From assembly GCF_035556095.1 (NCBI RefSeq), contig NZ_DATMFT010000016.1:53508-117507 (forward strand): 64,000 bases of DNA, in the 5' to 3' direction. Both the position numbers and the translations under genes were made by a program. Below the pieces are notes generated by a model. That model saw only the letters and a program-made list of their open reading frames with translations, ran no database searches and was not told the DNA's origin. Position 1 is the first letter of the stretch. Every line of letters begins with the position of its first letter. Positions 1 to 44,472 of this stretch are shown in pieces. The DNA comes from Parapedobacter sp. Lineage in GTDB: Bacteria > Bacteroidota > Bacteroidia > Sphingobacteriales > Sphingobacteriaceae.

Positions 1-23
1 TCGACTGCGAGGCTCGATTGTAT

Positions 24-81
24 AAAAGTATTCAGTGAGTGCCAATCCGGCCTCACCCTATGGCTGTACAAGCAGCCTCAA
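24..81 (-). ncRNA. tracrRNA-like structured element, copy 1 of 3
   Basis: 58-nt element nearly identical to 1370..1427. On the minus strand it reads TTGAGGCTGCTTGTACAGCC-ATAGG-GTGAGGCCggattGGCaCTCAC-TGAATACTTTT, i.e. two hairpins plus a U-rich tail. It is followed (minus strand) by ATACAATC, then the window ends. Confidence 0.45.
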
Positions 82-145
82 ATAATGCTCCCAAATAGGT
101 TTGAAAAATTTGTGAATCGGAATCAATATTCATAAATTTGTTTCT

Positions 146-376
146 ATGGAATTAAATGTAAAATTAGGTTTCAATGAACTACTGTCTGCAATTAGAAGTT
201 TGCCGGATAGTCAATTGGCTTTACTGAAAAAGGAACTGGATAAACCAGTAACCTTAGCGGTTCAGCCAAATAAGGCTCTTAAAGAACTGTTGCTAAGCGG
301 GCCTGTTTTTGAAAAGGAACAACTTGCCTCTATTGCAGAAGCCCGAAAATCCATCAATCAAAGGCGGAATCCCTAA
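146..376 (+). CDS. small antitoxin-like protein (VapB-type partner of the PIN toxin)
   Basis: 76-aa ORF ending 5 nt before the PIN-domain ORF. The size and position are typical of a type II antitoxin. No motif was recognised directly. Confidence 0.5.
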   Translation: MELNVKLGFNELLSAIRSLPDSQLALLKKELDKPVTLAVQPNKALKELLLSGPVFEKEQLASIAEARKSINQRRNP

Positions 377-381
377 TCCTT

Positions 382-747
382 TTGGATACATCTATTCTTA
401 TTGATTATTTCCGGAAGAAAGACAAAACCAGAATCCGTCTATATGAATTAACCGATCATTACGAAGGGTTTGTTATTTCAGTTATCACTGAATTTGAGAT
501 TTACGTTGGTGCAAAAGATGACCAATTGCCGTTTTGGACACGTCTTTTAAAAGAGATTCCCGTGATTCCCCTTGATTCGTCAATTGCCGAAATTGCGGTA
601 GGCCTCAACAATCAATTGAAAGCATCCAAAAACCAAATTGCCATTGCAGACCTATTCATAGCCTCAACAGCGCTTTCTTTGGGAGTACCATGCGCTTCGC
701 TTAATCGCAAACATTTCAGCCGGTTAAAAGACCTCACTATCATTTAA
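382..747 (+). CDS. vapC: PIN-domain toxin, VapC family
   Basis: 121 aa. N-terminal xDTSILIDYF with a conserved Asp, TEFEIY with a Glu, and IAIADLFIASTA with an Asp give a PIN-like acidic residue pattern. TTG start as given in the ORF track. Confidence 0.75.
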   Translation: MDTSILIDYFRKKDKTRIRLYELTDHYEGFVISVITEFEIYVGAKDDQLPFWTRLLKEIPVIPLDSSIAEIAVGLNNQLKASKNQIAIADLFIASTALSLGVPCASLNRKHFSRLKDLTII

Positions 748-792
748 TGAACAACTCTTCCCTACCCTGAACAAGGTTAAAGACGGTACCCC

Positions 793-817
793 GTCTGATG
801 TCTGGCGTCTGATGTCT
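793..817. repeat. GTCTGAT-type heptad block 1, fused to a variant array repeat
   Basis: GTCTGAT GTCTGGC GTCTGAT GTCT with strict 7-nt period. It sits directly next to the variant repeat at 824..856. Confidence 0.7.
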
Positions 818-1033
818 AAAAAACATTATACCTTTCAGAATGGGGTCTGTAACACCAAGCTTTTTATAGGCTACAAAAGTATCAGTTGTATATACCTTTC
901 AGAATGTGGTCTGTAACACCGCCGAGGCAATTAGAATCCCGCTCCAGGTAGTTGTATATACCCAGCTGATAGGAACACTACCCAGTAGCCAGTTGTATAT
1001 ACCTTTCAAATGGCATAACTCGATCCGAGCCGC

Positions 1034-1065
1034 GTCTGATGTCTAGTGTCTGGCGTCTGATGTCT
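1034..1065. repeat. GTCTGAT-type heptad block 2
   Basis: GTCTGAT GTCTAGT GTCTGGC GTCTGAT GTCT. It is followed by the variant repeat at 1071..1103. Confidence 0.7.
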
Positions 1066-1239
1066 CAAAACACTATACCTTTCAAATTGGGGTAGTTAAC
1101 ACCCTCAGAAATTGTAGCCGCAAGACTCTTAGTGTTCTATATACCTTTCAAATTGGGGTCTGTAATACCTAAATAGAGCGACGCTTGACGTTTTTGTTGC
1201 ATGTACCTTTCCAAAATTGGGTGTCCACACCGCTCTTCT

Positions 1240-1270
1240 TCTGATGTCTAGTGTCTGACGTCTAATGTCT
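1240..1270. repeat. GTCTGAT-type heptad block 3
   Basis: TCTGAT GTCTAGT GTCTGAC GTCTAAT GTCT. It is followed by the variant partial repeat at 1276..1300. Confidence 0.65.
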
Positions 1271-1369
1271 CCAAACAATATACCTTTCAAATTCGGTAGC
1301 CAACAAAAAAATCCGCGCCCATCAACAAAATCCACGTCATCCGCATTCCAATAAGCTCGTAACAAATAA

Positions 1370-1427
1370 AAAAGTATTCAGTGAGTGCCAACCCGGCCTC
1401 ACCCTATGGCTGTACAAGCAGCCTCAA
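1370..1427 (-). ncRNA. tracrRNA-like structured element, copy 2 of 3
   Basis: Same 58-nt element as 24..81, with one loop difference. It separates the two parts of the repeat array. Confidence 0.5.
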
Positions 1428-1488
1428 TTATTAAATAACCTTTGTGCTCAATGATACCGTCTTACGGCTTTATAATTAATCTGGCGGG

Positions 1489-1747
1489 GTTGTATATATC
1501 TTTTTACTTTAGAAATTGCGTATGCCTTTCAAATTGGGGTCTGTAATACCACAATGCACTAAATCCAAAATACTTTATATGTTGTATATACCTTTCAAAT
1601 TTGAATCCGTAACACCTCCGCTCGTGACGATGTTGCGGTCGGATTAGCTGTATATACCTTCAAATTGAAATCTGTGACACCCTTTTGGCTATTCATATCA
1701 CAAACATCGCTGTTGTATATACCTTTCAAAAAGGGCTTTGGAACAAT
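1489..1747 (-). CRISPR. degenerate CRISPR-like array, proximal part (5 repeat units, about 4 guides)
   Basis: Repeat units at 1489-1500 (12 nt), 1518-1550, 1581-1616, 1648-1681 and 1712-1747 (only the GGTATATACAAC-side half is conserved). Spacers at 1459-1488 (putative), 1551-1580, 1617-1647 and 1682-1711. Further very degenerate units may lie at 1787-1858. Confidence 0.7.
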
Positions 1748-1871
1748 CGTTGACTTAATAAAAAACTCGCTTTCAACTGTATATCTTCCAGGATTAATGT
1801 CAATTTGATACCCGAAAGGTTGTAGATACTCCAGCCGAGAGACATCGTGTTGTGTATAAATCTTAAAATAA

Positions 1872-1930
1872 AAAAGTATTCAGTGAGTACTTTCTTAAGT
1901 CTCACCCTACGGCTGTACAAGCAGCCTCAA
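1872..1930 (-). ncRNA. tracrRNA-like structured element, copy 3 of 3 (nearest the Cas12f-like gene)
   Basis: Same flanks and hairpin 1 as copies 1 and 2. The inner stem of hairpin 2 changes from GCC/GGC to ACT/AGT, which is compensatory, and the single-nt bulge is kept. It lies 70 nt downstream of the Cas12f-like stop codon, between the gene and the array. Confidence 0.55.
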
Positions 1931-1950
1931 AAATTTCAAAGAACTATTTT

Positions 1951-1992
1951 AGTCGTAAGTCGTAAGTCATCAGTCGTAAGTCAACAGTCAAC
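1951..1992. repeat. AGTCGTA-type heptad block
   Basis: AGTCGTA AGTCGTA AGTCATC AGTCGTA AGTCAAC AGTCAAC: six 7-nt units. They start 8 nt past the stop codon of the minus-strand Cas12f-like gene. Confidence 0.7.
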
Positions 1993-1999
1993 TCGCCAC

Positions 2000-3094
2000 T
2001 TACTCCTCAATCACATTAATCCCCGCCTTCTTCGCCTTGTAGGCAATCTTTTCTTTCAACCCGTAGTAGCTCCAATTGCGGAGCAGGAACTCCTCCTCCT
2101 TCGCCACTTCTTCCTTTTGCTGCTGGTTCACCAATAGCAGCGTTCCCGCTTCGGACTTCAGGCACAGGTCGATCAGCCGCCTGCTGTACAGGTGCAGCCG
2201 GCTGTCCACATATTTCTTTTCCTTCGCATCCCAGTCGTCCAGGCTTTTCAGTTTGCGCTGGCGGCCCTTGCCAGACCGGTTGTACGTAGACCCCCGCTGC
2301 AGGCGGTGCCGTGCGGCCTGTATGGCCAGCCGCCGGTGCAGGAACTCCTCCTTGTTGCCGATCTGGAACTGTGCCTTGCCCACCTTCATCACGATGGGGT
2401 GTTCGATGGAGAGCGATGCCTCGGCGATGACCGAATCGTTCAGCTGATGCGCATCGCGCTCCATCTCAAAGGCCGCCAGTAAGTACAGCTTACCCTTGTC
2501 GATTTTCAGCGAACTGGCGCAGAGTTTCAACGTACCCGCGATGTTGCGCTGTATCAGCACGCGCTTGTCCGTTTTGTCCTTGCCGAGGTAGGTCTTGAAC
2601 GGGATTTTGAACAACGTAAACCGGAATTCGCGGTGCTTCTCGTCGGCCACGAATTTCAGCGACTTGCCCGAAAAGGGTAGCGGAATATTGCGCTTGTAGT
2701 TGCGCAGCGATTTCTCCCCCTTCCAGTAGGCGGTACGCTCGGTATTGTACACGCTGGTCAATGAATTATTCAGGTTGGAAAAAATTTCAGAAGGCATCTT
2801 ACCAAGCAGCTTACTGGACAGTACGCGGTAGGTGGTATTCATCCGCGAGGTGTTCAGGATGCCCTCCTCATCCTTGGCGCGGTCGGCCAGCTTCACCTTC
2901 ACCTCGTCGGTAAAGTAAATCAGATCTTTCACCCGATCCTGCACATACAGGTTCGTGAAAATGAGGTTGGCCGCCTGGAAAGCCAGGAACTGCCATTCAT
3001 ACAGCTGCTTGTAGTGGGCATCTTTTTGCGCTTTGTCTTCGCAATCCACATACACCTGTATTTTCCGCGTCAGGATGATGGTTTTCTTTTCCAT
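2000..3094 (-). CDS. miniature Cas12f-like protein, predicted nuclease-dead and C-terminally truncated (dCas12f-like)
   Basis: 364 aa. The segments TIILTRKIQVYV, NIPLPFSGKS..FKIPF, VIAEASLSIEHPIV, GTLLLVNQQQK and LLRNWSYYGLKEKIAYKAKKAGINVIEE are collinear with my recollection of Un1Cas12f1 (TITKTLKLRIV; NFPIPL..IKIPF; IIGGIDVGVKSPLV; GTVQMENLESM; RLRGFWPYAEMQNKIEFKLKQYGIEIRKV). The RuvC-I Asp and RuvC-II Glu positions are non-acidic. The ORF ends before the Zn-finger/RuvC-III region. It is adjacent to the repeat array and the tracr-like RNA. Confidence 0.75.
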   Translation of the reverse strand: MEKKTIILTRKIQVYVDCEDKAQKDAHYKQLYEWQFLAFQAANLIFTNLYVQDRVKDLIYFTDEVKVKLADRAKDEEGILNTSRMNTTYRVLSSKLLGKMPSEIFSNLNNSLTSVYNTERTAYWKGEKSLRNYKRNIPLPFSGKSLKFVADEKHREFRFTLFKIPFKTYLGKDKTDKRVLIQRNIAGTLKLCASSLKIDKGKLYLLAAFEMERDAHQLNDSVIAEASLSIEHPIVMKVGKAQFQIGNKEEFLHRRLAIQAARHRLQRGSTYNRSGKGRQRKLKSLDDWDAKEKKYVDSRLHLYSRRLIDLCLKSEAGTLLLVNQQQKEEVAKEEEFLLRNWSYYGLKEKIAYKAKKAGINVIEE

Positions 3095-3097
3095 GGT

Positions 3098-3916
3098 TTA
3101 GGCCGATTGTTTCGCTTTATTGATGACCGCATAGGCCTGCACGAAGAGCGACTTCACCCGTGTGTCGTCCAGTTGCAGCGCCGCGGCGATTTCCTCAAAG
3201 GAATACTGCAGGTCGTACCGCATGGCCAGCACCTGCGCCTGCTCTTCGGTGAGCATGCCTTCGGCGATGAGTGGTTTGGTGCGGGTGGCGCTATCCAACT
3301 TGGTCGTGTCCGCGAGGGCAGCTTTCAGGTTGGCAATGCATTGCTCCACGCGTTGGGCAACCTCGTAATCCGAGATGCCGCCGAGGTGGTAGGCTATCCG
3401 TTCGTAGTTAAAGCTGTACCGCAGGCACAGCCGAAGAAATAGCTGCTGCTGGTCGGTCAGGTTGGGCAACAGTCGGTTGACCTGCGCCAGCTGCCGTTGT
3501 TTTTCTGCTTCCAGTTGTTCGAGATATACGGCGTCCTCCTCGGCTTCGTCCTCCAGTTCGTTACCCAGCATAAATTCCTGGAAATCTTCGATGCCATCCA
3601 GCCGCAGCATGCTACGGTGGAAACGGTTGAGGCTCTTCCGGTAGTAGGCCATGCCCGCTTCGCGGAGTTGCTGGCCGAGGAACTCGTGCAGGTGGGCTAC
3701 ATCGCGTATGACGTCGCGCATGAGCCACAGGCGGAGAAATCCCTCCTGCGCAATGGTATTGCCCACCATATCGTCCTTAACGAACCGCTCGGCCCGCCAT
3801 GCGTAGTGGTCGTAATGGGCGCGATAGAAATAATTCAGTCCGGTTTCGTCGCCCGTCTTGAACCGATGGAATGCCTCGGTCGCATTTTTTCGTGTTTGGC
3901 GATTGGTTTTCAACAT
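3098..3916 (-). CDS. ECF-type sigma-70 family factor with an extra C-terminal sigma4-like HTH
   Basis: 272 aa. Region 2-like NTIAQEGFLRLWLMR. Region 4-like LTDQQQLFLRLCLRYSFNYERIAYHLGGISDYEVAQRVEQCIANLK. A second similar HTH reads LTEEQAQVLAMRYDLQYSFEEIAAALQLDDTRVKSLFVQA. The stop codon is 3 nt upstream of the Cas12f-like start. Confidence 0.8.
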   Translation of the reverse strand: MLKTNRQTRKNATEAFHRFKTGDETGLNYFYRAHYDHYAWRAERFVKDDMVGNTIAQEGFLRLWLMRDVIRDVAHLHEFLGQQLREAGMAYYRKSLNRFHRSMLRLDGIEDFQEFMLGNELEDEAEEDAVYLEQLEAEKQRQLAQVNRLLPNLTDQQQLFLRLCLRYSFNYERIAYHLGGISDYEVAQRVEQCIANLKAALADTTKLDSATRTKPLIAEGMLTEEQAQVLAMRYDLQYSFEEIAAALQLDDTRVKSLFVQAYAVINKAKQSA

Positions 3917-4227
3917 AATCCGGTTCTTGGTTTAAAAATTTTGAAATAGATATCTCCCTAACAACAATGAGTCGCTATTTAGGGACTTAGGCTATCCGCT
4001 GTCTCTGGGAGAACGTGGGATGTTGGCGTGGGCGGATGCTATTCGGGCGAGCACTTTACGGTGGCCAACAGGCTCCGGAAGTGACGGTGCGTTCTTGATG
4101 TGTAGTCTGGTTGCTTTTTCACGATCTTGTATAATTTGGTCCTCTTTGGTGAAACAAAGGTATGTGTTTTATTTTTATTAAACAAATATGTTTAGTGTGA
4201 ATTTCAAACATTTCCCTTGTTTGCCGA

Positions 4228-4452
4228 ATGGCAATAGATATTCAAACATTCAAAACCCAGTTGGGCCAGCGTATCCGGGTGCTTAGGGAACGCCGTGGAC
4301 TTACCCAGATGGAGCTTGGGGCATTGATGGATAAAGATTTCCAGGCAATCAGCCGGATGGAAAAGGGGCGGGTCAATCCGTCGGCTTATCAAGTGTATGT
4401 GCTGGCGGGAGCGCTCGGCGTGCCTATCGAGGAGTTTTTTGATATGAAGTAA
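4228..4452 (+). CDS. XRE-family helix-turn-helix transcriptional regulator
   Basis: 74 aa. LGQRIRVLRERRGLTQMELGALM...ISRMEKGRVNPS is a typical Cro/C1 HTH. It is divergent from the sigma/Cas12f-like operon. Confidence 0.8.
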   Translation: MAIDIQTFKTQLGQRIRVLRERRGLTQMELGALMDKDFQAISRMEKGRVNPSAYQVYVLAGALGVPIEEFFDMK

Positions 4453-4548
4453 ACCCATTTGCACCGTAACTAAATTTGGCGTACCTTTGCGGCCGTTAAT
4501 TATTTTTTTATTGTTTCATTAAGTTCACGCTTTAATATTATTCAAGTA

Positions 4549-4827
4549 ATGTATTTAAGTAAAGAGTACAAAACGGGCATTTTCGCTGAATTTGCAGGAA
4601 ATGCAACCAACACCGGTTCCGCGGAAGGACAGGTGGCGTTATTTACCAAACGTATTGCGCACCTCACGGAGCACCTGAAATCGAATCGCAAAGATTTCGC
4701 AACCCAGCGTTCATTGCAGAAGCTGGTCGGTAAACGCCGGGCGTTGTTGAAATACCTTTTCCATAAGGACATCGCACGCTACCGTGCCATCATCAAGGCA
4801 TTAGGTCTGCGCGACATCATCAAATAA
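4549..4827 (+). CDS. rpsO: 30S ribosomal protein S15
   Basis: 92 aa. TGSAEGQVALFTKRIAHLTEHLKSNRKDFATQRSL..LVGKRRALLKYL..DIARYRAIIKALGLR matches the S15 pattern. A TAaaTTTG box lies upstream near 4473. Confidence 0.9.
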   Translation: MYLSKEYKTGIFAEFAGNATNTGSAEGQVALFTKRIAHLTEHLKSNRKDFATQRSLQKLVGKRRALLKYLFHKDIARYRAIIKALGLRDIIK

Positions 4828-4850
4828 TTGCAAGTAGCGTTTTCAATAGA

Positions 4851-4883
4851 AAAGCCATCCGCCAACCAGCAGATGGCTTTTTT
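4851..4883 (+). terminator. intrinsic terminator after rpsO
   Basis: AAAGCCATC - 12-nt loop - GATGGCTTT followed by TTT. Confidence 0.7.
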
Positions 4884-5049
4884 GATGCCCAAGACAGCGC
4901 AGGTTATGTGACGAGACGTGTTACCTTTTGGGTTTATCAGGCATTTGCCAACGGGAAATTGCCACTTTTTCCATTCGAATGCAACGGCTAACTAGGTGTG
5001 GAGCCGGGGTCGCCGGTGTTGACATACACAAAAAAGTGACTCACTTCAA

Positions 5050-5063
5050 CTTGTATACACAAG
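5050..5063. promoter_or_regulatory. HutC/GntR-type operator (CTTGTATACACAAG) upstream of the MFS sugar permease
   Basis: Member of a 6-site palindrome family, consensus CTTGTATATACAAG. A TAtgTTTG -7 box lies 10 nt downstream (5074-5081). Confidence 0.6.
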
Positions 5064-5112
5064 ATTGTTTTCTTATGTTTGTATCCTTATAAATCCAATT
5101 GTAAACGATGTT

Positions 5113-6528
5113 ATGACTCAAGTGGAGAATAAACCAAATTACCGAGTGGCTCTTTCTACGTTGACCACGTTATTTTTTATGTGGGGGTTCATCACCTGCA
5201 TGAACGATATCCTCATCCCACACCTGAAGGAGCTTTTCCAGCTGACTTATTTTCAGGCAATGCTCGTACAGTTCGCGTTTTTCGGGGCGTATTTCGTTGG
5301 ATCGGTAGTTTATTTTCTCGTTTCCTATCTTTATGGAGATCCCATCAATAAAATTGGTTACAAGGGTGGGATTATCATCGGTTTGGTGATTTCGGCATTG
5401 GGATGTGTGCTTTTTTATCCTGCTGAAACGATGGCGGTGTATCCCATGTTTTTATTGGCACTGTTTACGCTGGGCCTGGGGTTTACGCTATTGCAGATTT
5501 CGGCTAACCCCTATGTAGCCATCCTGGGTCGCCCTGAAGGGGCGTCGAGCCGGTTGAATATGGCCCAAGCGTTCAACTCGTTGGGCACGACAATCGCGCC
5601 TGTTTTGGGCGGATATCTTATTTTTGAGTTTTTCGCGGAAGGCGGTGAAATTACGGCGGAGGCAACGAAGGTTCCATACCTGATTTTCGGATTGTTGTTT
5701 GTATTGGTAGCCGTGCTCGTCTGGTTCGTGCGGCTGCCGAAATTCCAGGCCGAAGAAATAGAGGGGGGTAAACTGGGTGCTTTGGCATTCCCGCAATTAC
5801 GCGGGGGCGTAATCGCTATTTTCTTTTACGTGGGTGCTGAAGTTGCTATCGGAAGCCTGATCATCAGTTTTATCAGTCAGCCGGAAGTGATGGGTGTGGG
5901 TGAACATGTTGGGAAAAATTACCTTGCACTCTACTGGGGAGGCGCGATGATTGGGCGGTTTTTGGGGGCAATCTCATTGAATGATAAACTAAAGGGAGGA
6001 CGGAAAGTACTGTATATGGTCGTTGCCGCGATGCTGGTCTTCCTCTTGATATACAGTATCGTTGATTTGACATTTGTGCAGATTTCTGCATTTTTATTGT
6101 TTGTCTTGCTCAACTTCGGTGCTTTCGCGGTTGGCCGGTCTATGGCGGCCCGCACATTGCTGGTCTTTGCGCTGGTAAATATCGGTTTATTGCTCGCCAC
6201 CGTGTGGGGTAGCGGCAGTTGGGCCATGTGGGCACTTTTGGCAGTTGGTTTGTTCAACTCCATCATGTGGTCCAATATCTTCACGCTGGCTATTACCGGA
6301 TTGGGCCCACATACGAGCCAAGGAGCTTCTTTATTGGTAATGGGTATTCTTGGCGGTGCCTTAATCCCACTGTTGCAGGGATGGATGGCCGATACGGTAG
6401 GGCTTAAGCCATCGTTTATCATTCCAGCCTTATGTTACGCGTATATTGCTGGGTATGGGTTGTATTGTGGCCGGAGGTTGGGTGCGGTTAGGGAATCGGA
6501 GCCGGTACAGGAAGGCATCGCTAAGTAG
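5113..6528 (+). CDS. MFS sugar:H+ symporter, FucP/GluP (fucose or glucose/galactose) family
   Basis: About 470 aa and multi-TM. N-terminal FFMWGFITCMNDILIPHLK is typical of this family. ATG at 5113 is preferred over the TTG at 5065. Confidence 0.75.
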   Translation: MTQVENKPNYRVALSTLTTLFFMWGFITCMNDILIPHLKELFQLTYFQAMLVQFAFFGAYFVGSVVYFLVSYLYGDPINKIGYKGGIIIGLVISALGCVLFYPAETMAVYPMFLLALFTLGLGFTLLQISANPYVAILGRPEGASSRLNMAQAFNSLGTTIAPVLGGYLIFEFFAEGGEITAEATKVPYLIFGLLFVLVAVLVWFVRLPKFQAEEIEGGKLGALAFPQLRGGVIAIFFYVGAEVAIGSLIISFISQPEVMGVGEHVGKNYLALYWGGAMIGRFLGAISLNDKLKGGRKVLYMVVAAMLVFLLIYSIVDLTFVQISAFLLFVLLNFGAFAVGRSMAARTLLVFALVNIGLLLATVWGSGSWAMWALLAVGLFNSIMWSNIFTLAITGLGPHTSQGASLLVMGILGGALIPLLQGWMADTVGLKPSFIIPALCYAYIAGYGLYCGRRLGAVRESEPVQEGIAK

Positions 6529-6681
6529 TTTTTGTGCTTTATGCGGGTTGCTTTCGGCAGTTTTAGTAATCAGATGGCGTATTATTTGATTGCCCTACGT
6601 GTTTAATGGTTGTTTTAATCACGTCGGGCACATAGTTGTTCGCATGAGAGATACTGTTTAACCTTAAAAAGTAGCGTACGA

Positions 6682-7584
6682 ATGACCGATCGTATAAAGA
6701 CGTATGGATTACCACCGGGAGGTGAAGTCCTCCACGATTTTCAAATCTATGAGGTAAAGGGTGGAGAAATAGATAATAAGCATTATCCACATAAAACCGA
6801 TCGGCCGCACCGGCATAGCTATTATGAAGTATGCGTTTTTATCGATGACGGTGGTAAACACGAGATTGATTTTGTGACTTATTCAATCCAATCCAATAGT
6901 GTCCATTTTCTTTCCCCGGGGCAGGTGCACCGTATTTTTAGAAATGAAGATTACCACGGTTACCTGATTGTTTTTTCCAGTGAATTTTTTCCATTGGGGT
7001 CAACGCGGCAGGAAGATCCACTCTTTTATTTCCCGTTTTTCAATAACCCGACCATGCTGCCCATCTTGGGTTTAGACGAAAGCTCTTTCGAAGAGATCTT
7101 ACTAATTGTCCGTCAAATGGAGAAAGAGAGTCGCCTCAAACAGCAGTCGCATAGTGAGATTTTGAGAACCTATCTGCAGTTGCTGCTTTTAAAATGCAAG
7201 CGACATTATATGTGGAAATTTGCGGAAAAGCAAAAAATGAATACGCCCGATTTTTCGCAAGTCCAGCAGTTCAATATGCTTGTTGAGAAAAAGTTCACGG
7301 AGCATCTCCTGATTCAAGATTACGCAGAAATGCTGGGTACATCGCCCGCGATCCTCAATAGGTCCGTAAAAAAAATAATCGGTAAAACAGCCGCGGAGAT
7401 CATCGTCGACAGGCTTATCTTACAAGCCAAACGTTTGTTGATTTATACCGATCTTTCCAACAAGGAAATTGCTTTCAGCTTAAACTATACAGACCCTTCC
7501 TATTTTACACGTACGTTTAAAAAGAAGACGGGCAAGAGCCCCTCCCAATTCAGAAAGGAGCTAAACGAAAAGTACCAGCATTAA
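6682..7584 (+). CDS. AraC-family transcriptional regulator (cupin sensor + HTH)
   Basis: 300 aa. The C-terminal IQDYAEMLGTSPAILNRSVKK...AFSLNYTDPSYFTRTFKKKTGKSPSQFR is an AraC double HTH. Confidence 0.85.
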   Translation: MTDRIKTYGLPPGGEVLHDFQIYEVKGGEIDNKHYPHKTDRPHRHSYYEVCVFIDDGGKHEIDFVTYSIQSNSVHFLSPGQVHRIFRNEDYHGYLIVFSSEFFPLGSTRQEDPLFYFPFFNNPTMLPILGLDESSFEEILLIVRQMEKESRLKQQSHSEILRTYLQLLLLKCKRHYMWKFAEKQKMNTPDFSQVQQFNMLVEKKFTEHLLIQDYAEMLGTSPAILNRSVKKIIGKTAAEIIVDRLILQAKRLLIYTDLSNKEIAFSLNYTDPSYFTRTFKKKTGKSPSQFRKELNEKYQH

Positions 7585-7748
7585 TATAAAAAGTGCATAG
7601 TCGACTTAACGGAGAGCGGTAGATTTGAATTCTATTCGGTAAACTGATGGTCGACCCACCAATTATAACATGATCGGGGTTGGTTTTCAAAAGTGCGCCG
7701 TTGGGTTTGTTTGGCAATAACTGATGTATAAACTTAATAACACAACAG

Positions 7749-9206
7749 ATGAACTTGATTAGATTTGCTTGTTTTCTCGCCGTTTTTTCCTTTTATGGCT
7801 TATCGGCTGTCGCACAACCCTACCCGTCATTAAATAACGAAAAGGTTGATGGGTATCAGGGTATTTGGTTCACGTTGGGGCAATTTTCGGAATATGGGGA
7901 TAAATATTCCGGCGGCTTGGGAACCTATACCGCCAAGCATATTCCACTGGCTATCTATTCGCCAACGGTAGACAAAACGTTCTTTGTTTACGGCGGGATC
8001 GTAAAAGACCGGGTGAGTGATGCTGATCCAACCGATCCCAAAGCAAAGGCGAAGGGTGATTACTTGGTCTGCATGATCGGAAGCTACGACCATAAAACGG
8101 GTACTGTTGAAAAACCTACAGTCGTATACGATAAAGGGGGTGTTTTCGATCCACACGATAATCCGTCCATAGCCATGGATTCAGATGGGTACATCTGGGT
8201 GTTTGTGAGCGGGAGAGGGCGCGGTCGGCCGGGATTTATCTATAAAAGCAGTTTGCCGAATTCCATCGATAAGTTTGACATGATTTCGGAACGGGAAATT
8301 ACCTATCCGCAACCCAAATATGTTGACGGGGAAGGCTTTTTGCACCTGTTTACCAAGTATCTTGGCGTTCGGTTGTTGTACTTTAGTACGAGTAAGGACG
8401 GTGTTGAGTGGACCGATGACAAACAACTTGCAGCCATAAAACGGCCGGAAGACAAGAATGGCGGCCACTATCAAATCAGCGGTCAACTCGGAGAGAAAAT
8501 CGTGTTTTTTTATAACTGGCATCCAAATGGAAACGTAGACCGCAGAACGAATATCTATTATCTGCAAACTACTGATTTCGGCCGTACGTGGACTACCGCG
8601 GAGGGCACGCCGGTGTCCACCCCCGTGACCGAGGTTGACAACCCTACCTTAGTCAGGGAATTCTTCTCAAAGGAAGAAAATGTATATATCAAGGACGTTG
8701 CCTTTGACAAGAATGGCAATCCGGCGGCACTATACCTTTCGGGCGCTGGGCACCAACCCGGGCCCCAAAACGGAATGCGGGAATGGCAGGTAATCCATTG
8801 GACGGGAGAAAAGTGGGAAAATCACACCATAACGACTTCGGATCATAATTATGATACCGGTAGCTTATGGATTGATGGGGATAAATGGGTTGTGATAGCG
8901 CCCACCGAGAACACACCCCAGCAATGGGGCGGTGGCGGCGAGCTCGTGCTCTGGGAAAGCAAAGATAATGGCAAGACTTGGAAGTCGAAAAAGCAGATTA
9001 CCAAGAAAAGCGAGTTAAATCACAACTACGTGAGAAAAGTAGTGAATGGAAAAGATCCATTTAAATACTTTTGGGGTGATGGCGACCCCCATACCCACAG
9101 TGAATCCCATTTATATTTTGGCGATTCCAAAGGAAGGGTCTGGCAGTTGCCTTACACGATGGATGCAGATGACGTAAAGCCGGAAAAAGGGCTGCGAAAA
9201 AAATAA
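7749..9206 (+). CDS. secreted BNR_4-type beta-propeller protein (possible GH145/PL42-like), paralog of 28109..29611
   Basis: Signal peptide. YQGIWFTLGQ..YSGGLGTYTAKH..DKTFFVYGG and TNIYYLQTTDFGRTW are shared with the paralog. The family assignment is from memory. Confidence 0.55.
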   Translation: MNLIRFACFLAVFSFYGLSAVAQPYPSLNNEKVDGYQGIWFTLGQFSEYGDKYSGGLGTYTAKHIPLAIYSPTVDKTFFVYGGIVKDRVSDADPTDPKAKAKGDYLVCMIGSYDHKTGTVEKPTVVYDKGGVFDPHDNPSIAMDSDGYIWVFVSGRGRGRPGFIYKSSLPNSIDKFDMISEREITYPQPKYVDGEGFLHLFTKYLGVRLLYFSTSKDGVEWTDDKQLAAIKRPEDKNGGHYQISGQLGEKIVFFYNWHPNGNVDRRTNIYYLQTTDFGRTWTTAEGTPVSTPVTEVDNPTLVREFFSKEENVYIKDVAFDKNGNPAALYLSGAGHQPGPQNGMREWQVIHWTGEKWENHTITTSDHNYDTGSLWIDGDKWVVIAPTENTPQQWGGGGELVLWESKDNGKTWKSKKQITKKSELNHNYVRKVVNGKDPFKYFWGDGDPHTHSESHLYFGDSKGRVWQLPYTMDADDVKPEKGLRKK

Positions 9207-18739: not shown

Positions 18740-21700
18740 ATGAATTCTTATGTAGACCTTAAAGGCCGTACCCGACTGCCTTTGGTAAATCGGGTACTGC
18801 GTAATCTCGTAGTAACCACGGTGGCGGTAGTGGCAGCGATGCCCTACGTGTCGGCGGGAATGTTTAGCCCTGCTGATGTCACCTTACACCGACTGGAAAC
18901 GTCGGTACGGAAGCCCAACAGTATGTTGCAGGATACGGAGGTTCGCGGTACCATACGCGACTCGACAGGATCATTGCTTACCGGTGTATCCATTCACGTT
19001 AAAAACCGGACGTCTATCGGTACGACCACCGATCTCAACGGACGCTATTTATTGAGTGTTCCGGCTGGATCCACGCTGACGTTCTCAATGGTAGGGTTCG
19101 AGACCCAAGAGATAGCGGTGGGTAACCAAGAAGTCATCGATGTGGTGCTTGTCGAATCCTCATCCATGTTGGATGATGTGGTCGTGACCGCTTTTGGTGG
19201 CGCGGTAAAGCGCACGGACATGATCGGCGCCATTACGTCGGTTAAGCCCTCAGATCTCAAAGTGCCATCCAGTAACCTGACCACCGCTTTGGCGGGACGG
19301 GTTGCCGGTATGATTGCCTATCAACGAAGCGGCGAGCCAGGTATGGACAATGCGGATTTCTTTATCCGTGGTGTAACCACATTCGGTTATAAAAAAGACC
19401 CGCTGATCCTGATTGACAACCTCGAAGTGACCACCACGGAATTGGCCCGTCTTCAACCGGATGACGTAGCGAGTTTCTCGATCATGAAAGATGCCACTGC
19501 AACGGCGCTGTATGGTGCCCGGGGGGCCAATGGAGTCATCCTGATTACGACCAAAGAAGGTACCGAAGGGAAGGTGAAAATTAATGTGCGGCTGGAAAAC
19601 TCGATCTCGGCACCTACACGCAACGTGGAGCTGGCCGATCCCGTTACTTATATGGAGTTGCATAATGAAGCCGTGAAAACGCGGGATCCGTTGGGGGAAC
19701 AGCCTTATTCCCAAGGGAAGATAGATAACACAAAGGCCGGAACGAATGCGATAGCCTACCCAGCGACTGATTGGCGGAAAGAACTTTTCAAGGACTATAC
19801 CATGAACCAACGGTTCAACCTCAACCTTTCCGGCGGTGGGAGCGTTGCCCGTTACTACGTGGCTGGAGCGGTTACCAAAGATAATGGCGTATTACAGGTA
19901 GATCCGCGTAATAACTTCAATAGTAACATCGATCTGACGAGTTATAACCTTCGCTCGAACGTCAATGTTAACCTGACGAAATCCACCGAATTGATTATCA
20001 GGATGAATGGCAACTTTGACGATTACACCGGGCCGATAGCGGGGGGAAAAGCGATGTACCAAATGGTGATGCGTACCAATCCGGTTCTTTTTTCCGCCTT
20101 TTATCCACCGGGCGAAGATTATCAGCACGTTACCCATATCATGTTTGGAAATTATGAGGAAGGTAATTACCTGAATCCTTATGCGGAAATGGTGAAAGGG
20201 TACCGTGATTATTCACGCTCGTATGTACTGGCCCAGTTGGAGTTGAAACAAGACCTGGCTTTCCTCACCGAAGGCTTGCAATTCCGTGCGTTGATGAATA
20301 CGAACCGGACCTCGTTTTTTGATGTCAACAGAGCCTATTCGCCATTCTACTACTCGTTAAACGGTTATAACCGGCGTGCGGACACCTATAGCTTATCGCT
20401 CATCAATGAGGATGGTGGACGGGAATACCTCGACTATAATGAAGGGCCGAAGGAGGTGAGTTCTATCTTTTACCTGGAGTCTGCGTTGAGCTACAACCGG
20501 ACATTCGGCGAAAAACATGGTTTGAGCGGCATGTTGGTATACATCATGCAAGAGCGGCTGTCGGCCAACGCGGGGAGTCTGCAGCTCTCCCTCCCGTATC
20601 GGAATATAGGTTTGTCGGGTAGAACAACGTATGCATACGATAGCCGGTATTTCTTCGAGTTCAATTTCGGCTATAACGGATCCGAGCGGTTTTACAAAAA
20701 CAACCGTTTCGGCTTTTTCCCGTCTGCCGGGTTAGCATGGACGATTTCCAACGAAAAATTCTTTGAACCGATTACGTCGACGGTCAACAACCTGCGCGTA
20801 CGGGCCACTTACGGCTTGGTTGGTAACGATGCAATCGGGAGGCCGGAAGACCGGTTTTTCTATTTGTCGAATGTAGACATGGAGGCCGGTGGAGGCACGT
20901 TCGGCCGGGACAATGGCTATTCACGGTCGGGTGTTAACGTAACGCGGTACGCCAATTCGGACATCACTTGGGAGCAAGCCGAGAAGATGAATGTTGCTTT
21001 GGAAGTCGGACTGTTCAAGAAATTGGATATAACCGCAGATTTCTTTAAAGAACACCGGACCAATATCCTGATGGAACGGTCGCACATCCCATCAACTATG
21101 GGGCTTGGCACCGTCAATGTTATGGCCAATGTGGGTGAAGCCACAGGCCGGGGGGTCGATCTGTCGGCCAATTATTCGCATAGTTTTATCAATGGGTTGT
21201 GGCTTCAAGGAATGGGCAATTTCACGTTTGCGCAAAGTGCTTTTAAAGTATATGAGGAGCCGGAATATAGCGAGTCGTGGCAGTCGCGTGTTGGCTATTC
21301 CGTCAATCAGGAATGGGGCTACATTGCCGAGCGCTTATTTGTTGATGAGCATGAGGTGGCCAATTCGCCGAGGCAGAATTTCGGTGAGTATATGGCTGGC
21401 GATATCAAGTATCGTGACGTCAATCGGGATGGCCAGATTACCGAGTTGGATATGGTTCCCATTGGCTTTCCGACGATGCCCGAAATTGTATATGGATTTG
21501 GTCTTTCCGCAGGATGGAAGAACCTTGATTTCAGTGTGTTCTTCCAAGGCCTGGCTAGGGAGTCATTCCGGATCGGCGTTGCCCAAACGGCGCCTTTTCT
21601 CAGTCATCGATACAGTCCCTCCGAATTGCCGGGGATAACGCTTCAGAATCAGCTGCTCAAAGCGTATGCGGACGACCATTGGTCTGAAGACAACCGGAAC

Positions 21701-21994
21701 CTCTACGCATTGTGGCCCCGGTTAACTGCCACCACCAATACAAACAATACCCAACGCAGTACGTGGTTTCAGCGCGACGGCAGCTTCCTACGGTTGAAGC
21801 AGGCTGAAATCGGATATACGCTGCCCCAGGGCCTCACTGATCGGGTGTGGCTGAATAGCTTGCGTTTTTATGTGAGCGGGACGAACCTGCTATCGTGGAG
21901 TAAGTTTAAACTATGGGACGTGGAGATGGCGGACAATGGCTTGGGCTACCCCGTACAGCGCGTTGTCAATTTGGGTTTACATGTTTCATTATAA
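18740..21994 (+). CDS. SusC/RagA-family TonB-dependent outer-membrane transporter
   Basis: 1084 aa. Carboxypeptidase-regulatory-like VRGTIRDSTGSLLTGVSIHVKN, a plug (DATATALYGARGANGVILITTK), and a C-terminal beta-barrel ending in ..NLGLHVSL. Confidence 0.9.
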   Translation: MNSYVDLKGRTRLPLVNRVLRNLVVTTVAVVAAMPYVSAGMFSPADVTLHRLETSVRKPNSMLQDTEVRGTIRDSTGSLLTGVSIHVKNRTSIGTTTDLNGRYLLSVPAGSTLTFSMVGFETQEIAVGNQEVIDVVLVESSSMLDDVVVTAFGGAVKRTDMIGAITSVKPSDLKVPSSNLTTALAGRVAGMIAYQRSGEPGMDNADFFIRGVTTFGYKKDPLILIDNLEVTTTELARLQPDDVASFSIMKDATATALYGARGANGVILITTKEGTEGKVKINVRLENSISAPTRNVELADPVTYMELHNEAVKTRDPLGEQPYSQGKIDNTKAGTNAIAYPATDWRKELFKDYTMNQRFNLNLSGGGSVARYYVAGAVTKDNGVLQVDPRNNFNSNIDLTSYNLRSNVNVNLTKSTELIIRMNGNFDDYTGPIAGGKAMYQMVMRTNPVLFSAFYPPGEDYQHVTHIMFGNYEEGNYLNPYAEMVKGYRDYSRSYVLAQLELKQDLAFLTEGLQFRALMNTNRTSFFDVNRAYSPFYYSLNGYNRRADTYSLSLINEDGGREYLDYNEGPKEVSSIFYLESALSYNRTFGEKHGLSGMLVYIMQERLSANAGSLQLSLPYRNIGLSGRTTYAYDSRYFFEFNFGYNGSERFYKNNRFGFFPSAGLAWTISNEKFFEPITSTVNNLRVRATYGLVGNDAIGRPEDRFFYLSNVDMEAGGGTFGRDNGYSRSGVNVTRYANSDITWEQAEKMNVALEVGLFKKLDITADFFKEHRTNILMERSHIPSTMGLGTVNVMANVGEATGRGVDLSANYSHSFINGLWLQGMGNFTFAQSAFKVYEEPEYSESWQSRVGYSVNQEWGYIAERLFVDEHEVANSPRQNFGEYMAGDIKYRDVNRDGQITELDMVPIGFPTMPEIVYGFGLSAGWKNLDFSVFFQGLARESFRIGVAQTAPFLSHRYSPSELPGITLQNQLLKAYADDHWSEDNRNLYALWPRLTATTNTNNTQRSTWFQRDGSFLRLKQAEIGYTLPQGLTDRVWLNSLRFYVSGTNLLSWSKFKLWDVEMADNGLGYPVQRVVNLGLHVSL

Positions 21995-22006
21995 ATGGAG
22001 TAGATC

Positions 22007-23905
22007 ATGAAAGAAATTAAAAGAATAGGAATCGGTGTTTTATTGTTGTTGGGTATTTCCTGCAACAGCTACCTTGACGTGGTTCCTGATAACGTGGCAA
22101 CCGTGGATCATGCATTTAACATGCGCAATACCGCAGAAAAATATCTATTTACCTGTTATCGTTACCTCCCGTCACATGCGAGTTTAGGTGATAACCCTGC
22201 CTTTGCAACTGGCGACGAATTCTGGTTTTCCAATTCGTTTCTCCAGTTCCACTCGGCACCGGGATGGCAGATTGCCCGAGGTAACCAGAGCATTGTCTCC
22301 CCGATTTTAAACTATTGGGACGGCGTCAGTCAACCGTTCAAAGGTATCCGCGACTGCAATATCTTCATCGAAAATATTGGTAGGGTACCCGACATGCTGG
22401 ATGAAGAAAAGGACCGGTGGATTGCGGAGGCGAAGTTTTTAAAAGCCTATTATCATTTTTGGTTGATGCGGATGTATGGGCCGATTCCGATCATCCGCGA
22501 AAATCTGCCGATTTCCGCGTCGGTTCAAGAGGTCCGTGTGGCGCGGGAGCCGATCGACGATTGTGTGGCCTATATTGTGGAGCTGTTGGACGAAGCCGTA
22601 GTGAACCTGCCTGACGTCATTTCGGATGAATTGACAGAACTGGGACGTATTACGAAAACCATTGCCTTGTCGGTGAAAGCGAAAGTGTTGGTGACGGCAG
22701 CCAGTCCACTATTCAATGGAAATAACGAGTATGTAGGATTCGCTGGGCCCGACGGACGGGAGTTGTTCAACCAAACGTATTCGACCGATAAGTGGCAACA
22801 GGCAGCGGATGCCTGCCGGGAAGCGATCGATGCATGTCATGAGCTGGGTATGAAATTATACACGTTTGAGCTCGGCATCAGTCAGTTTTCGCCGTCGGAA
22901 GAGACCATCACCCAGATGAGTATACGGAATAGCGTAACGGAGCGATGGAATTCAGAGATTATTTGGGGCAATACAAATAGTACCGCTGTGGCTTTGCAGC
23001 GGCAAGCGACACCGCCGCTGGACCCTACAAACAGCGTAAATGCCAACACACTGGGAAATATGGCGCCGCCAATCAAAATCGCGGAGCAGTTCTATTCGAA
23101 AAACGGGGTGCCCATCGATGAAGATGTGACCTATGATTACGCAGGGCGTTTTGAATTGCGTGAGGCAGATGAAGCAGATAAGTATCATCTGCAAACGGGA
23201 TATACGACTGTTGGGCTCCATTTTGACCGCGAAGAGCGGTTTTATGCCAGCTTGGCGTTCGACGGCGGACTGTGGTATGGCCAGGGCCGATTAGATGATA
23301 ACGATCAGTGGACCATCCAGGCTAAATTGGGGCAAGCACAAACGCGTGTATCCAATAACCGTTTCTCCGTAACCGGATACTGGCCCAAAAAACTGGTTAA
23401 TTATGAAAACATCATCGGTGCGGGAAACACCTATACCGTCCAATACTACCCTTGGCCTGTAATGCGGCTGTCGGATTTGTATTTATTGTACGCCGAGGCA
23501 TTAAACGAACTGAATGAACAACCGAGCGACGAAACCTATGAATACTTAAATAAGGTTCGCGAGCGGGCGGGTTTGCCGACGGTCCAGGATGCATGGACAA
23601 ACTTCTCCAGACAGCCGGATAAATTCACCACACAGGTGGGGCTGCGGAGTATCATCCAGCAAGAGCGGCTGAACGAGCTGGCTTTTGAAGGGAAACGATT
23701 CTGGGACCTGAGGAGATGGAAACGTGCACATATCGAGTTGAATAACCTGATCACCGGTTGGGACATTGACCAAGAGAATCCGGAAACATACTATCGCCAA
23801 CGTGTATTATTCAACCAGACATTTATGATGCGTGATTATTTCTGGCCCATCCGGGAATCCAACCTGATTGTGAATCGGAATCTGGTGCAGAATCCGGGTT
23901 GGTAA
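22007..23905 (+). CDS. SusD/RagB-family nutrient-binding lipoprotein
   Basis: 632 aa. A lipobox (GISC) and the C-terminal ERLNELAFEGKRFWDLRRW...NPGW signature. Confidence 0.9.
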   Translation: MKEIKRIGIGVLLLLGISCNSYLDVVPDNVATVDHAFNMRNTAEKYLFTCYRYLPSHASLGDNPAFATGDEFWFSNSFLQFHSAPGWQIARGNQSIVSPILNYWDGVSQPFKGIRDCNIFIENIGRVPDMLDEEKDRWIAEAKFLKAYYHFWLMRMYGPIPIIRENLPISASVQEVRVAREPIDDCVAYIVELLDEAVVNLPDVISDELTELGRITKTIALSVKAKVLVTAASPLFNGNNEYVGFAGPDGRELFNQTYSTDKWQQAADACREAIDACHELGMKLYTFELGISQFSPSEETITQMSIRNSVTERWNSEIIWGNTNSTAVALQRQATPPLDPTNSVNANTLGNMAPPIKIAEQFYSKNGVPIDEDVTYDYAGRFELREADEADKYHLQTGYTTVGLHFDREERFYASLAFDGGLWYGQGRLDDNDQWTIQAKLGQAQTRVSNNRFSVTGYWPKKLVNYENIIGAGNTYTVQYYPWPVMRLSDLYLLYAEALNELNEQPSDETYEYLNKVRERAGLPTVQDAWTNFSRQPDKFTTQVGLRSIIQQERLNELAFEGKRFWDLRRWKRAHIELNNLITGWDIDQENPETYYRQRVLFNQTFMMRDYFWPIRESNLIVNRNLVQNPGW

Positions 23906-29611: not shown

Positions 29612-29689
29612 GACGACAGGGAAATGAACCGAAAAGAAGGGATGTCCACCGTTGTTACTGGACAACAAAAGACAACAATGGACATTTCC

Positions 29690-32599: not shown

Positions 32600-32609
32600 A
32601 TCAAACAAT

Positions 32610-39817: not shown

Positions 39818-39837
39818 CATCATAAAATTTCAAGGTG

Positions 39838-41592: not shown

Positions 41593-41633
41593 TACTTAAA
41601 GTGGTTTTAACAATGCAACTAAAACGTATAAAG

Positions 41634-44453: not shown

Positions 44454-44472
44454 GCTATTAAAATAGATTGTT

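Follow-up and report, generated by a model that had tools for sequence, protein, structure and literature searches.

We analysed a 64-kb stretch of DNA from Parapedobacter sp. (NZ_DATMFT010000016.1, positions 53,508–117,507), hereafter called the window; all coordinates are counted from window position 1. In it, a sigma factor gene (rpoE), a gene for a nuclease-dead Cas12f (dcas12f), guide-RNA genes and repeat arrays form a locus that we take, with a probability of roughly 0.86, to be the Parapedobacter orthologue of the characterised dCas12f–sigmaE RNA-guided transcription system. Hoffmann et al. (Nature 2026, PMC13472631; bioRxiv June 2025) reported that nuclease-dead Cas12f and sigmaE start transcription by means of a guide RNA, and a structural companion paper (PMC12259091) presented the Flagellimonas dCas12f–sigmaE–RNA polymerase structures 9n9c, 9n9m, 9n9o and 9n9q. 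The mechanism was shown by experiment for the Flagellimonas taeanensis (Fta) homologue (PMC13472631, PMC12259091). The original prediction for this DNA had mentioned a recent report of such a system, and that report exists as these two papers. As far as can be tested on the sequence, the window locus carries the features that define the family, and its set of guide genes and CRISPR-like arrays is unusually large.

A probable dCas12f–sigmaE locus in Parapedobacter

The gene order is a divergent hth gene on the plus strand, then rpoE and dcas12f on the minus strand, with the guide-RNA genes and repeat arrays downstream of dcas12f; the published architecture has the same hth–rpoE–dcas12f order (PMC13472631). 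The rpoE gene (3098–3916, minus strand) encodes a 272-aa extracytoplasmic function (ECF) sigma factor, sigmaE, with an extra C-terminal domain at about residues 205–272, and dcas12f (2000–3094, minus strand) encodes a 364-aa, nuclease-dead and C-terminally truncated Cas12f. The two open reading frames (ORFs) had been correctly called as an ECF sigma gene (3916–3098) and a Cas12f-like gene (3094–2000) separated by 3 nt, and we read the junction as TAA-acc-ATG.

The 364-aa protein matched no Pfam family and gave only a sub-threshold match to the NCBIfam family guided_TnpB. Against the PDB, however, it aligned over residues 2–362 of 364 with chain A of 9n9c, 'Nuclease-deactivated Cas12f' (E = 4.3e-128), which bears out the proposed Cas12f-like identity at full length. 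Three further PDB entries of the same name were also matched, and active Cas12f and TnpB chains followed at E values of 5e-39 to 1e-12. The predicted loss of nuclease residues was likewise confirmed. The RuvC-I motif GVDLG of the active enzymes 9nzo, 8hr5 and 9nzp aligns to EASLS, so that Ser227 stands in place of the catalytic Asp; the RuvC-II Glu aligns to V322 or Q325, with no Glu there; and the C-terminus stops 70–90 residues short of the ends of the active enzymes in the alignment. In the TnpB/Cas12f family, the zinc ribbon and the third catalytic Asp (RuvC-III) belong to the part that is missing here. Judged by these residues, the RuvC nuclease of the window Cas12f is dead. The lid tyrosines Y344 and Y345, which sense R-loop completion in the solved complex (PMC12259091), are conserved as Y343 and Y344.

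In the rpoE product, the NCBIfam sigma70-ECF match spans residues 27–201, and Pfam places a second, region-4-like helix-turn-helix (HTH) domain at residues 222–261. The protein aligned with chain C (RpoE) of 9n9q (E = 7.5e-37) over residues 16–266, C-terminal domain included, and the Fta contacts R218, F225 and F243 of this domain are kept as R233, F240 and F258. These alignments show that the window sigma factor retains the dCas12f-binding C-terminal domain. The docking domain, the homology to 9n9c and 9n9q and the published mechanism together support the earlier proposal of guide-programmed recruitment of polymerase.

Relatives of the effector number more than 1000. The nearest are from Parapedobacter (97%), followed by Olivibacter, Sphingobacterium (∼62%; homologues 60–65% identical to the window effector), Pedobacter (∼56%) and Mucilaginibacter. 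We compared 80 genome loci fetched with the effector, and observed that a sigma gene with the C-terminal domain ends just upstream of dcas12f, on the same strand, in 79 of them; the co-occurrence of the two genes was one of the checks proposed with the original prediction. Within the genus, synteny with rpoE and the flanking genes is fixed.

By homology with the characterised complex, a guide-loaded dCas12f dimer would open an R-loop at a matching chromosomal site, and sigmaE would bind the truncated RuvC domain and the lid through its C-terminal domain and region 4. RNA polymerase would then be recruited, with transcription starting at a fixed distance downstream and without a promoter motif.

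Guide-RNA scaffolds and single guides

Downstream of dcas12f, a structured RNA element of ∼65 nt is present in three copies in the window. These copies are exact over 28 nt (1901–1928, 1398–1425 and 52–79), with the core GAGGCTGCTTGTACAGCCNTAGGGTGAG, where shuffled sequences lead to an expectation of 0. The 18-nt core of the scaffold occurs in ∼60 of the 80 loci, in 1–10 copies, all of them on the strand that carries dcas12f. In Parapedobacter and Pedobacter the core is placed downstream of the effector gene, and in Sphingobacterium it is placed upstream of rpoE.

From an alignment of 116 distinct copies, we observed two hairpins, GGCUG/CAGCC and GUGAG+3/3+CUCAC, in which 94.7% of the cells pair. 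Compensatory changes were present in 9 of the 13 pairs; none of 500 shuffles matched the observed values, and shifted registers collapsed. The hairpin GGCUG-CUUGUA-CAGCC is presumably homologous to a stem of the Un1Cas12f trans-activating CRISPR RNA (tracrRNA; GGCUGCUUGCAUCAGCC). Past hairpin 2 come a single-stranded segment, a highly variable linker and a repeat-like end (...GAAAGGUAUAUACAAC or a shortened form), followed by the guide. These results show that the 'tracr-like' element is a conserved structured guide-RNA scaffold. Rfam contains no family for the scaffold or for the repeats.

The first copy belongs to single guide RNA A (1833–1928, minus strand; 96 nt), which consists of a scaffold (1928–1849) with the two hairpins, an anti-repeat and the repeat-like 3' end ...TATACACAAC, and of the guide ACGATGTCTCTCGGCT (1848–1833). 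The segment 1930–1872, earlier taken as a tracrRNA element, is in fact the 5' part of this single guide RNA (1928–1833). Published guide RNAs are 85–105 nt long, with four paired regions, a 14–16-nt guide at the 3' end and, at times, tandem copies (PMC13472631), and the 96 nt of guide RNA A lie inside this range. The sequence of guide A is conserved in P. composti. A promoter-like motif, GTTCTTTGAAAT (1933–1944, minus strand), lies 4 nt upstream of the scaffold as a candidate promoter element of guide RNA A, and in Parapedobacter, Olivibacter and Pedobacter loci the same motif stands ahead of the first scaffold.

The third copy is part of single guide RNA C (1–79, minus strand), a short-linker scaffold (79–17) with the guide CGAGCCTCGCAGTCGA (16–1). 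This copy, given earlier as a tracr copy only, therefore carries a guide that runs off the window; in the metagenome contig L082 it reads on as ...AATCG. Guide RNA C folds with a z score of −2.1. Scaffold copy B (1364–1428, minus strand) is different: its own repeat-like 3' end is absent, and a 72-nt linker (1363–1292) leads into a 3'-degenerate repeat. It folds as two hairpins (z = −2.15), and its layout makes it the best candidate for a trans-acting, tracrRNA-like scaffold. The 'tracrRNA-like' label thus holds as regards homology and complementarity, and fails for at least two of the three copies, which are fused single guides.

Over window positions 1–7756, the contig L082 has only 10 differences from the window, and it carries the locus ∼3 kb past window position 1. 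This extension contains the remainder of guide C, 8 further spacers flanked by repeats, a fourth scaffold, a truncated fifth scaffold and, beyond the window edge, a second PIN toxin–antitoxin pair (L082 4323–4953).

A separate segment was seen in four other Parapedobacter species (L001, L003, L004 and L008; ∼7110–7300), where ∼180 conserved nt lie between dcas12f and the first standard scaffold (GTAAAG..GTGGCTGAGCTATAATGGTG...TTTGCGAATGAGTGCAAC, with a repeat-like end ...UGCAAC). It is absent from the window and, from its sequence, may represent a second guide-RNA type.

Repeat arrays and heptad tracts

With looser matching, a 36-nt repeat, GGTGTTACAGACCCCAATTTGAAAGGTATATACAAC, was found between 821 and 1864 in ∼15 copies, some full, others partial or degenerate at the 3' end, which separate unique segments of 26–31 nt. 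The 3' half of the repeat, TTTGAAAGGTATATACAAC, occurs six times at ≤3 mismatches against 0.05 expected. The nine guide intervals proposed earlier agree with ours within 1–2 nt.

All array features lie on the minus strand. Directly behind guide RNA A, two decayed mini-repeats (1832–1819 and 1789–1777; together 1777–1832) enclose a guide-like segment (1818–1791), and this arrangement is conserved in L004 and L005. Block 1 (1459–1747) has repeats at 1747–1712, 1681–1647, 1616–1581 and 1550–1515 and a partial one at 1500–1489, with spacers at 1711–1682, 1646–1617, 1580–1551 and 1488–1459; P. koreensis has a counterpart of the spacer 1646–1617 that agrees at 22 of 24 positions. A 3'-degenerate 'terminal' repeat with heptad tract 2 follows at 1240–1291 and belongs to repeat family D4, which has three copies. 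Block 2 (1034–1231) comprises repeats at 1231–1196 and 1169–1134, a terminal repeat at 1103–1068, spacers at 1195–1170 and 1133–1104 (g7) and heptad tract 3. Block 3 (792–1010) comprises partial repeats at 1010–992 and 963–951, a repeat at 920–885, a terminal repeat at 856–821, spacers at 991–964, 950–921 and 884–857, and heptad tract 4 (817–792), after which comes the hairpin GACGGggtaCCGTC+TTT (795–778).

Three repeats lack their last 6–7 nt and run into heptad tracts, at 1270–1240, 1065–1034 and 817–792. Heptad tract 1 (GACTNNN ×6; 1951–1990, minus strand; 40 nt) lies between the dcas12f stop codon and the GTTCTTTGAAAT motif. A Tandem Repeats Finder (TRF) search of the 64 kb gave no period-7 tracts besides those at 1951–1990, 1240–1270, 1034–1065 and 792–817. 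Relatives have period-7 tracts at the same places, built from other units (TAGCTNN, CTAANNN, GCTGANN, TTAGGNG and GAAGTAG) and varying in length from almost none to ∼90 nt. Most heptad units hold a stop triplet on one or the other strand. The tracts were also considered as guide targets, and this idea was dropped as no guide matches them.

Of the 9 other Parapedobacter species that we examined, 8 have arrays of 11–32 units, and L007 has a single unit. Within 6 kb of dcas12f, the range that this count covers and beyond which arrays may reach, only 2 of 17 repeat-flanked spacers have a counterpart in the nine other species. This low sharing contrasts with effectors that are 85–97% identical and with a toxin–antitoxin module that is 93% identical in P. 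flavus. Therefore, the differences between species look like replacement of spacers rather than drift, without cas1 or cas2 in the window. As to these genes, a Pfam scan of all non-nested window ORFs of ≥140 aa gave no cas1, cas2, cas4 or second effector, as the original prediction had stated; Cas2-sized ORFs of <140 aa were not scanned. No FecR-type anti-sigma factor was present among the scanned ORFs.

The toxin–antitoxin module mentioned above (146–747, plus strand), a PIN-domain toxin gene with a small upstream partner gene, lies within the guide region, between array block 3 and guide RNA C, and in P. flavus it occupies the same place. A conserved insertion of ∼60 nt (GGCCGC..TCCTT..TTGCTCCTTTCAT...) divides a repeat in two; it occurs in the window organism past the window edge (L082 ∼5330–5410) and in Parapedobacter sp. 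2B3 (L002 ∼7220–7300).

Complementarity between scaffold and repeat

The tail of copy B after hairpin 2, AAUACUUUU, pairs with GAAAGGUAU of the repeat over 9 bp (−6.8 kcal/mol). The signal comes from the single-stranded tail only: the duplex energy of the whole scaffold with the repeat was not better than with shuffled repeats. A second complementarity exists between the loop of hairpin 1, UUGUA, and the repeat 3' end, UACAA; this pairing is invariant in all lineages and neither supports nor contradicts a contact.

The tail–repeat (anti-repeat/repeat) pairing co-varies between genera. One Sphingobacterium group has GUACCCUUA with UAGGGUA, L045 has AUACCUUUUC with GAAAGGUAU, Pedobacter has UUGUUUC with GAAAGCAA, L066 has CUACUUUCAU with AUGAACAGUAG, and one P. 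luteus copy has ACUUUAU with GUAAGGU. When scaffolds and repeats were swapped between loci, the matrix leaned towards the cognate pairs, not strongly.

The complementarity points to the survival of a dual-RNA mode, with a free scaffold that could pair with array-derived CRISPR RNAs (crRNAs) in the manner of a Cas12f tracrRNA. Guides for the complex would come from two sources, namely the fused single guides A and C and, probably, crRNAs cut from the 36-nt-repeat arrays. In such crRNAs, GAAAGGUAU could pair with the tail, and the 3' UACAA with the hairpin 1 loop, of a free scaffold, for example copy B.

We regard it as speculative, at odds well short of even, that in Parapedobacter this combination of free scaffold and array crRNAs makes the activated promoters an evolvable, spacer-encoded regulon; the thought arises because the arrays almost wholly differ between species while the effectors are 85–97% identical. 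With the same reserve, the arrays might be viewed as a natural multiplexed CRISPR activation (CRISPRa) array, renewed by a route of spacer turnover without local cas1/cas2, in which the borders between units would be set by the heptad tracts together with the 3'-degenerate terminal repeats.

Targets of the guides

The original prediction had placed the natural targets outside the window, and on neither strand of the 64 kb did we observe a guide match above chance. With ≤3 mismatches in 16 nt, the 14 window guides gave 5 matches against 5.8 expected, and the longest exact matches within the window were of 10–11 nt. A relaxed, seed-based search of upstream intergenic regions of the window in the productive orientation gave 13 matches against 14.6 expected. 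For 142 guides of other Parapedobacter arrays, the best match in the window was 14/16, in coding DNA. A match of spacer g2 to the coding sequence of Sphingobacterium dcas12f (13–14/16, at one orthologous site) was rejected, as it is at chance level for the 2 Mb searched.

Reported guide targets are chromosomal sites upstream of susCD, of two-component systems and of rpoE itself (PMC13472631). Guide C and many guides of relatives carry the motif GAG(Y)CU(Y)G at guide positions 2–9, and in Pedobacter loci the same motif begins a site that lies ahead of rpoE by 140–230 nt. In the Pedobacter locus L063, a site upstream of rpoE matches guide C contiguously over its first 12 bases. Spacer g7 (1133–1104) has the motif at a 5-nt offset.

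A pattern derived from g7 was found in JGI metagenomes at 11 further sites, besides the array of the window itself, and each of these 11 forms the 5' end of a conserved ∼210-nt element. This element begins GAGUCUUG and ends CAAGACUC, with a small hairpin behind it; it forms a long rod closed by GAGUCU/AGACUC, in which 20 of 53 pairs show compensatory change. Copies are present in L087–L098 (for example L095, 1592–1800) and, upstream of rpoE, in L056, L058, L061, L070, L076 and L080. In these other Sphingobacteriia the element adjoins divergent hth genes and is followed by rpoE or, in L095, by susC; in L095 it lies between a divergent hth gene and the SusC gene. In the metagenome contig L093, which is from another organism, the site at the 5' edge of the element equals g7 at 29 of 30 positions; an hth-like ORF flanks the element there, and the downstream side is too short to read. 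Guides of relatives match the element at several positions and not just at its 5' edge (102 sense vs 23 antisense). Rfam has no family for this ∼210-nt element. It is probably the 'hth-associated ncRNA' (non-coding RNA) of Hoffmann et al., which 'precisely overlaps the guide-matching target' (PMC13472631).

At least guides g7 and C thus appear, from these matches, to belong to a class that matches the 5' edge of an hth-linked structured element. Since guides of this class match an element upstream of rpoE or (L095) susC, control of nutrient-uptake operons is the likely output of the window system.

When the window, L082 and 12 Parapedobacter and related loci were searched with a covariance model of the hth-associated element (R1), no copy was found (best E = 0.76, filters off). 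The targets would therefore lie elsewhere in the genome, and the window locus is probably not auto-regulated through such an element. A protein search for hth paralogues, intended as a route to target loci, gave orthologues of ≥78% identity only.

Alternative explanations

Several observations weigh against the assignment to the dCas12f–sigmaE system or against parts of it. One of the four contact residues of the sigmaE C-terminal domain is altered (Fta H240 is K255 here). No guide target was found in the 64-kb window, including the regions upstream of rpoE and of three susCD pairs (18.7, 36.7 and 41.6 kb), and the R1 model finds no copy of the hth-associated element in the window or in any Parapedobacter locus. 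The spacers are of 26–31 nt, against the 14–16 nt of characterised guides. Finally, thermodynamic support for scaffold–repeat pairing is modest, with 4.9% of shuffled repeats equalling it.

The alternative that survives best accepts the same system and assumes that only the fused single guides (A, C and those past the window) work, the arrays and copy B being decaying relics of a type V-F locus. We hold this for a serious possibility that falls somewhat short of even odds. Arrays of this kind were called vestigial in PMC13472631, which itself predicts susCD targets for two Sphingobacterium array spacers. Many window repeats are partial or 3'-degenerate, as decay would have it, whereas the 3' 19 nt of the repeats, which scaffold pairing needs, are nearly invariant while the spacers differ. 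Adaptation genes were not found among the window ORFs of ≥140 aa; on the other side, the spacers look replaced between species and not merely drifted (2 of 17 shared, next to a toxin–antitoxin module 93% identical), and arrays of 11–32 units persist in 8 of 9 other Parapedobacter species, with one unit in L007. For 8 of the 9 array spacers no target was found, but the remaining one, g7, matches the target class of canonical guides at 29 of 30 positions. In favour of relics also speaks that the characterised dCas12f homologues, 16 tested systems in all, gave no tracrRNA-like species (PMC13472631).

In another explanation, dCas12f and its guide would act mainly as a roadblock repressor, as in CRISPR interference (CRISPRi), TldR or Cas12m, and the sigma factor would be independent of it. 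Repressing nuclease-dead relatives of TnpB and Cas12 are known, and a separate dCas12f clade has arrays directed at efflux promoters (PMC13472631). The window protein, however, falls in the sigmaE-linked clade (E = 4e-128 to Fta dCas12f); its gene is 3 nt from that of a sigma factor in whose dCas12f-binding C-terminal domain 3 of the 4 contact residues are kept, and the two genes are linked in 79 of 80 loci. We therefore consider a repressor improbable.

Still less probable is a degraded type V-F CRISPR-Cas immune locus with spacers against phages and plasmids and with cleavage by another nuclease. The Cas12f-type 36-nt repeats and the mostly species-specific spacers of 26–31 nt would suit it. 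The RuvC domain, however, is dead and truncated, and cas1, cas2, cas4 or another effector was not found in the window (ORFs of ≥140 aa). A blastn search of the array against 50,697 phage and 72,556 plasmid records, databases that are poor in Parapedobacter phages, gave only matches with E ≥0.3 from unrelated hosts, and 20-mers of four spacers had 0 exact matches in IMG/VR. The sole spacer with a match, g7, meets a chromosomal regulatory element.

A remnant of an IS200/IS605-type TnpB transposon with omega-RNA copies is the least probable reading, in spite of public annotations of homologues as 'transposase' or 'IS605 OrfB' and the sub-threshold guided_TnpB match, given that no tnpA was found in the window, that rpoE and the flanking synteny are fixed across the genus, and that the closest solved relatives are Cas12f and not TnpB.

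Relation to known systems

The window locus shares with the Flagellimonas system the order hth / rpoE–dcas12f / guide RNA, a truncated, RuvC-dead Cas12f of 364–365 aa, a sigma factor with a C-terminal docking domain and, immediately behind dcas12f, a guide RNA of ∼96 nt whose guide is at the 3' end. Both are without an anti-sigma factor and adaptation genes, in the window among the ORFs scanned. Unlike that of Flagellimonas, the locus here has the scaffold in at least 5 copies, no fewer than 23 repeat units over ∼5 kb, embedded toxin–antitoxin modules and heptad tracts.

The locus of Sphingobacterium sp. DR205 was described with full-length guides and discontinuous 'vestigial' CRISPR arrays (PMC13472631, Extended Data Figs 3d and 6f). 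It resembles the Parapedobacter locus in its protein clade and in having chimeric single guides together with broken arrays whose repeats resemble the 3' end of the scaffold. Its array spacers are predicted there to aim at regulatory DNA and not at mobile elements. In contrast to the Sphingobacterium loci we fetched, where the guide genes are upstream of rpoE, those of Parapedobacter are downstream of dcas12f, and the Parapedobacter arrays are larger (11–32 units in 8 of 9 other species) and almost wholly species-specific.

With type V-F Cas12f (Cas14), the system shares the fold, by homology a design of one dimer on one RNA, 36-nt repeats ending ...AUACAAC, and anti-repeat complementarity. 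Unlike those enzymes, the effector here is nuclease dead, truncated and sigma-coupled; no cas1, cas2 or cas4 was found among the scanned ORFs, and at least two scaffolds are fused to guides. Like TldR (PMC10705468), it would be an exapted nuclease-dead, RNA-guided DNA binder that regulates host genes with conserved guides. TldRs, however, descend from TnpB, repress and have no sigma partner, whereas the window protein is nested in Cas12f and is a predicted activator.

The original prediction had also supposed that the architecture might be undescribed. The mechanism and the mixed architecture of single guides and arrays are already published: both several guide genes in tandem and a locus with full-length guides next to discontinuous arrays appear in Extended Data Figs 3 and 6f of PMC13472631. 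The heptad tracts, on the other hand, are not mentioned in that paper, and neither is Parapedobacter (PMC13472631). Later work on the natural dCas12f–sigmaE system did not turn up in a literature search. The details that are new or odd are the heptad tracts, the scaffold–repeat complementarity and a set of species-specific spacers in a window where cas1/cas2 were not found.

The dCas12f–sigmaE system represents a new paradigm, in which the choice of promoter is written in RNA and not read by the sigma factor. To this principle the window locus adds nothing; it shows retention across a genus, with extensive species-specific arrays and several scaffold genes. It bears on the origin of the single guide from a crRNA:tracrRNA pair, and on whether 'vestigial' arrays still supply guides. 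If the arrays do supply guides, the system would amount to a naturally multiplexed array for gene activation and could serve as a compact template when multi-target activators are engineered. The cultured type strains of Parapedobacter are a convenient place for testing array function.

Other features of the window

The hth gene (4228–4452, plus strand), divergent from rpoE, encodes a 74-aa Xre-type HTH protein (HTH_3/HTH_31 match, E = 1e-11), and an identical protein is on record as a regulator from a Parapedobacter sp. metagenome-assembled genome (MAG). The hth–rpoE intergenic region has no unusual structure (folding z = −0.82). It contains an inverted repeat, CTTTG-N6-CAAAG (4144–4159), a candidate HTH operator that is kept in both relatives sharing the window gene order (L001 and L002). 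Inverted repeats near hth have been reported as HTH auto-repression sites (PMC13472631).

By Pfam, the remainder of the window consists of polysaccharide-utilisation and sugar-metabolism genes. Three SusC/SusD pairs are accompanied by GH92, BNR and DUF4959/DUF5000 genes (18740–23905, 36686–41592 and 41589–46131).

Two tracts with a period of 21 nt were observed between these genes. The first is a long intergenic tract (29640–30290) of ∼25–30 degenerate tandem units, roughly TTGATATAyTrCAATGsGCykT, which closes with the perfect palindromes TTGCGGTACCGCAA and, by its sequence, looks like an iteron-type array of protein-binding sites. The second (31520–31850) has ∼16 units with the core CC(N)GTAC(N)GG, for example TTTCCAGTACGGGGAAAAAGC, and lies inside the ORF 31495–32031. 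Neither this ORF nor a 216-aa ORF between the two tracts (30380–31030, minus strand) has a Pfam match. Adjoining the tracts, and between two polysaccharide-utilisation loci, an HTH_3+DUF6922 antitoxin-like gene and an AbiEii nucleotidyltransferase gene (32123–33257) make up a type IV toxin–antitoxin or abortive-infection pair; this may be a small inserted element.

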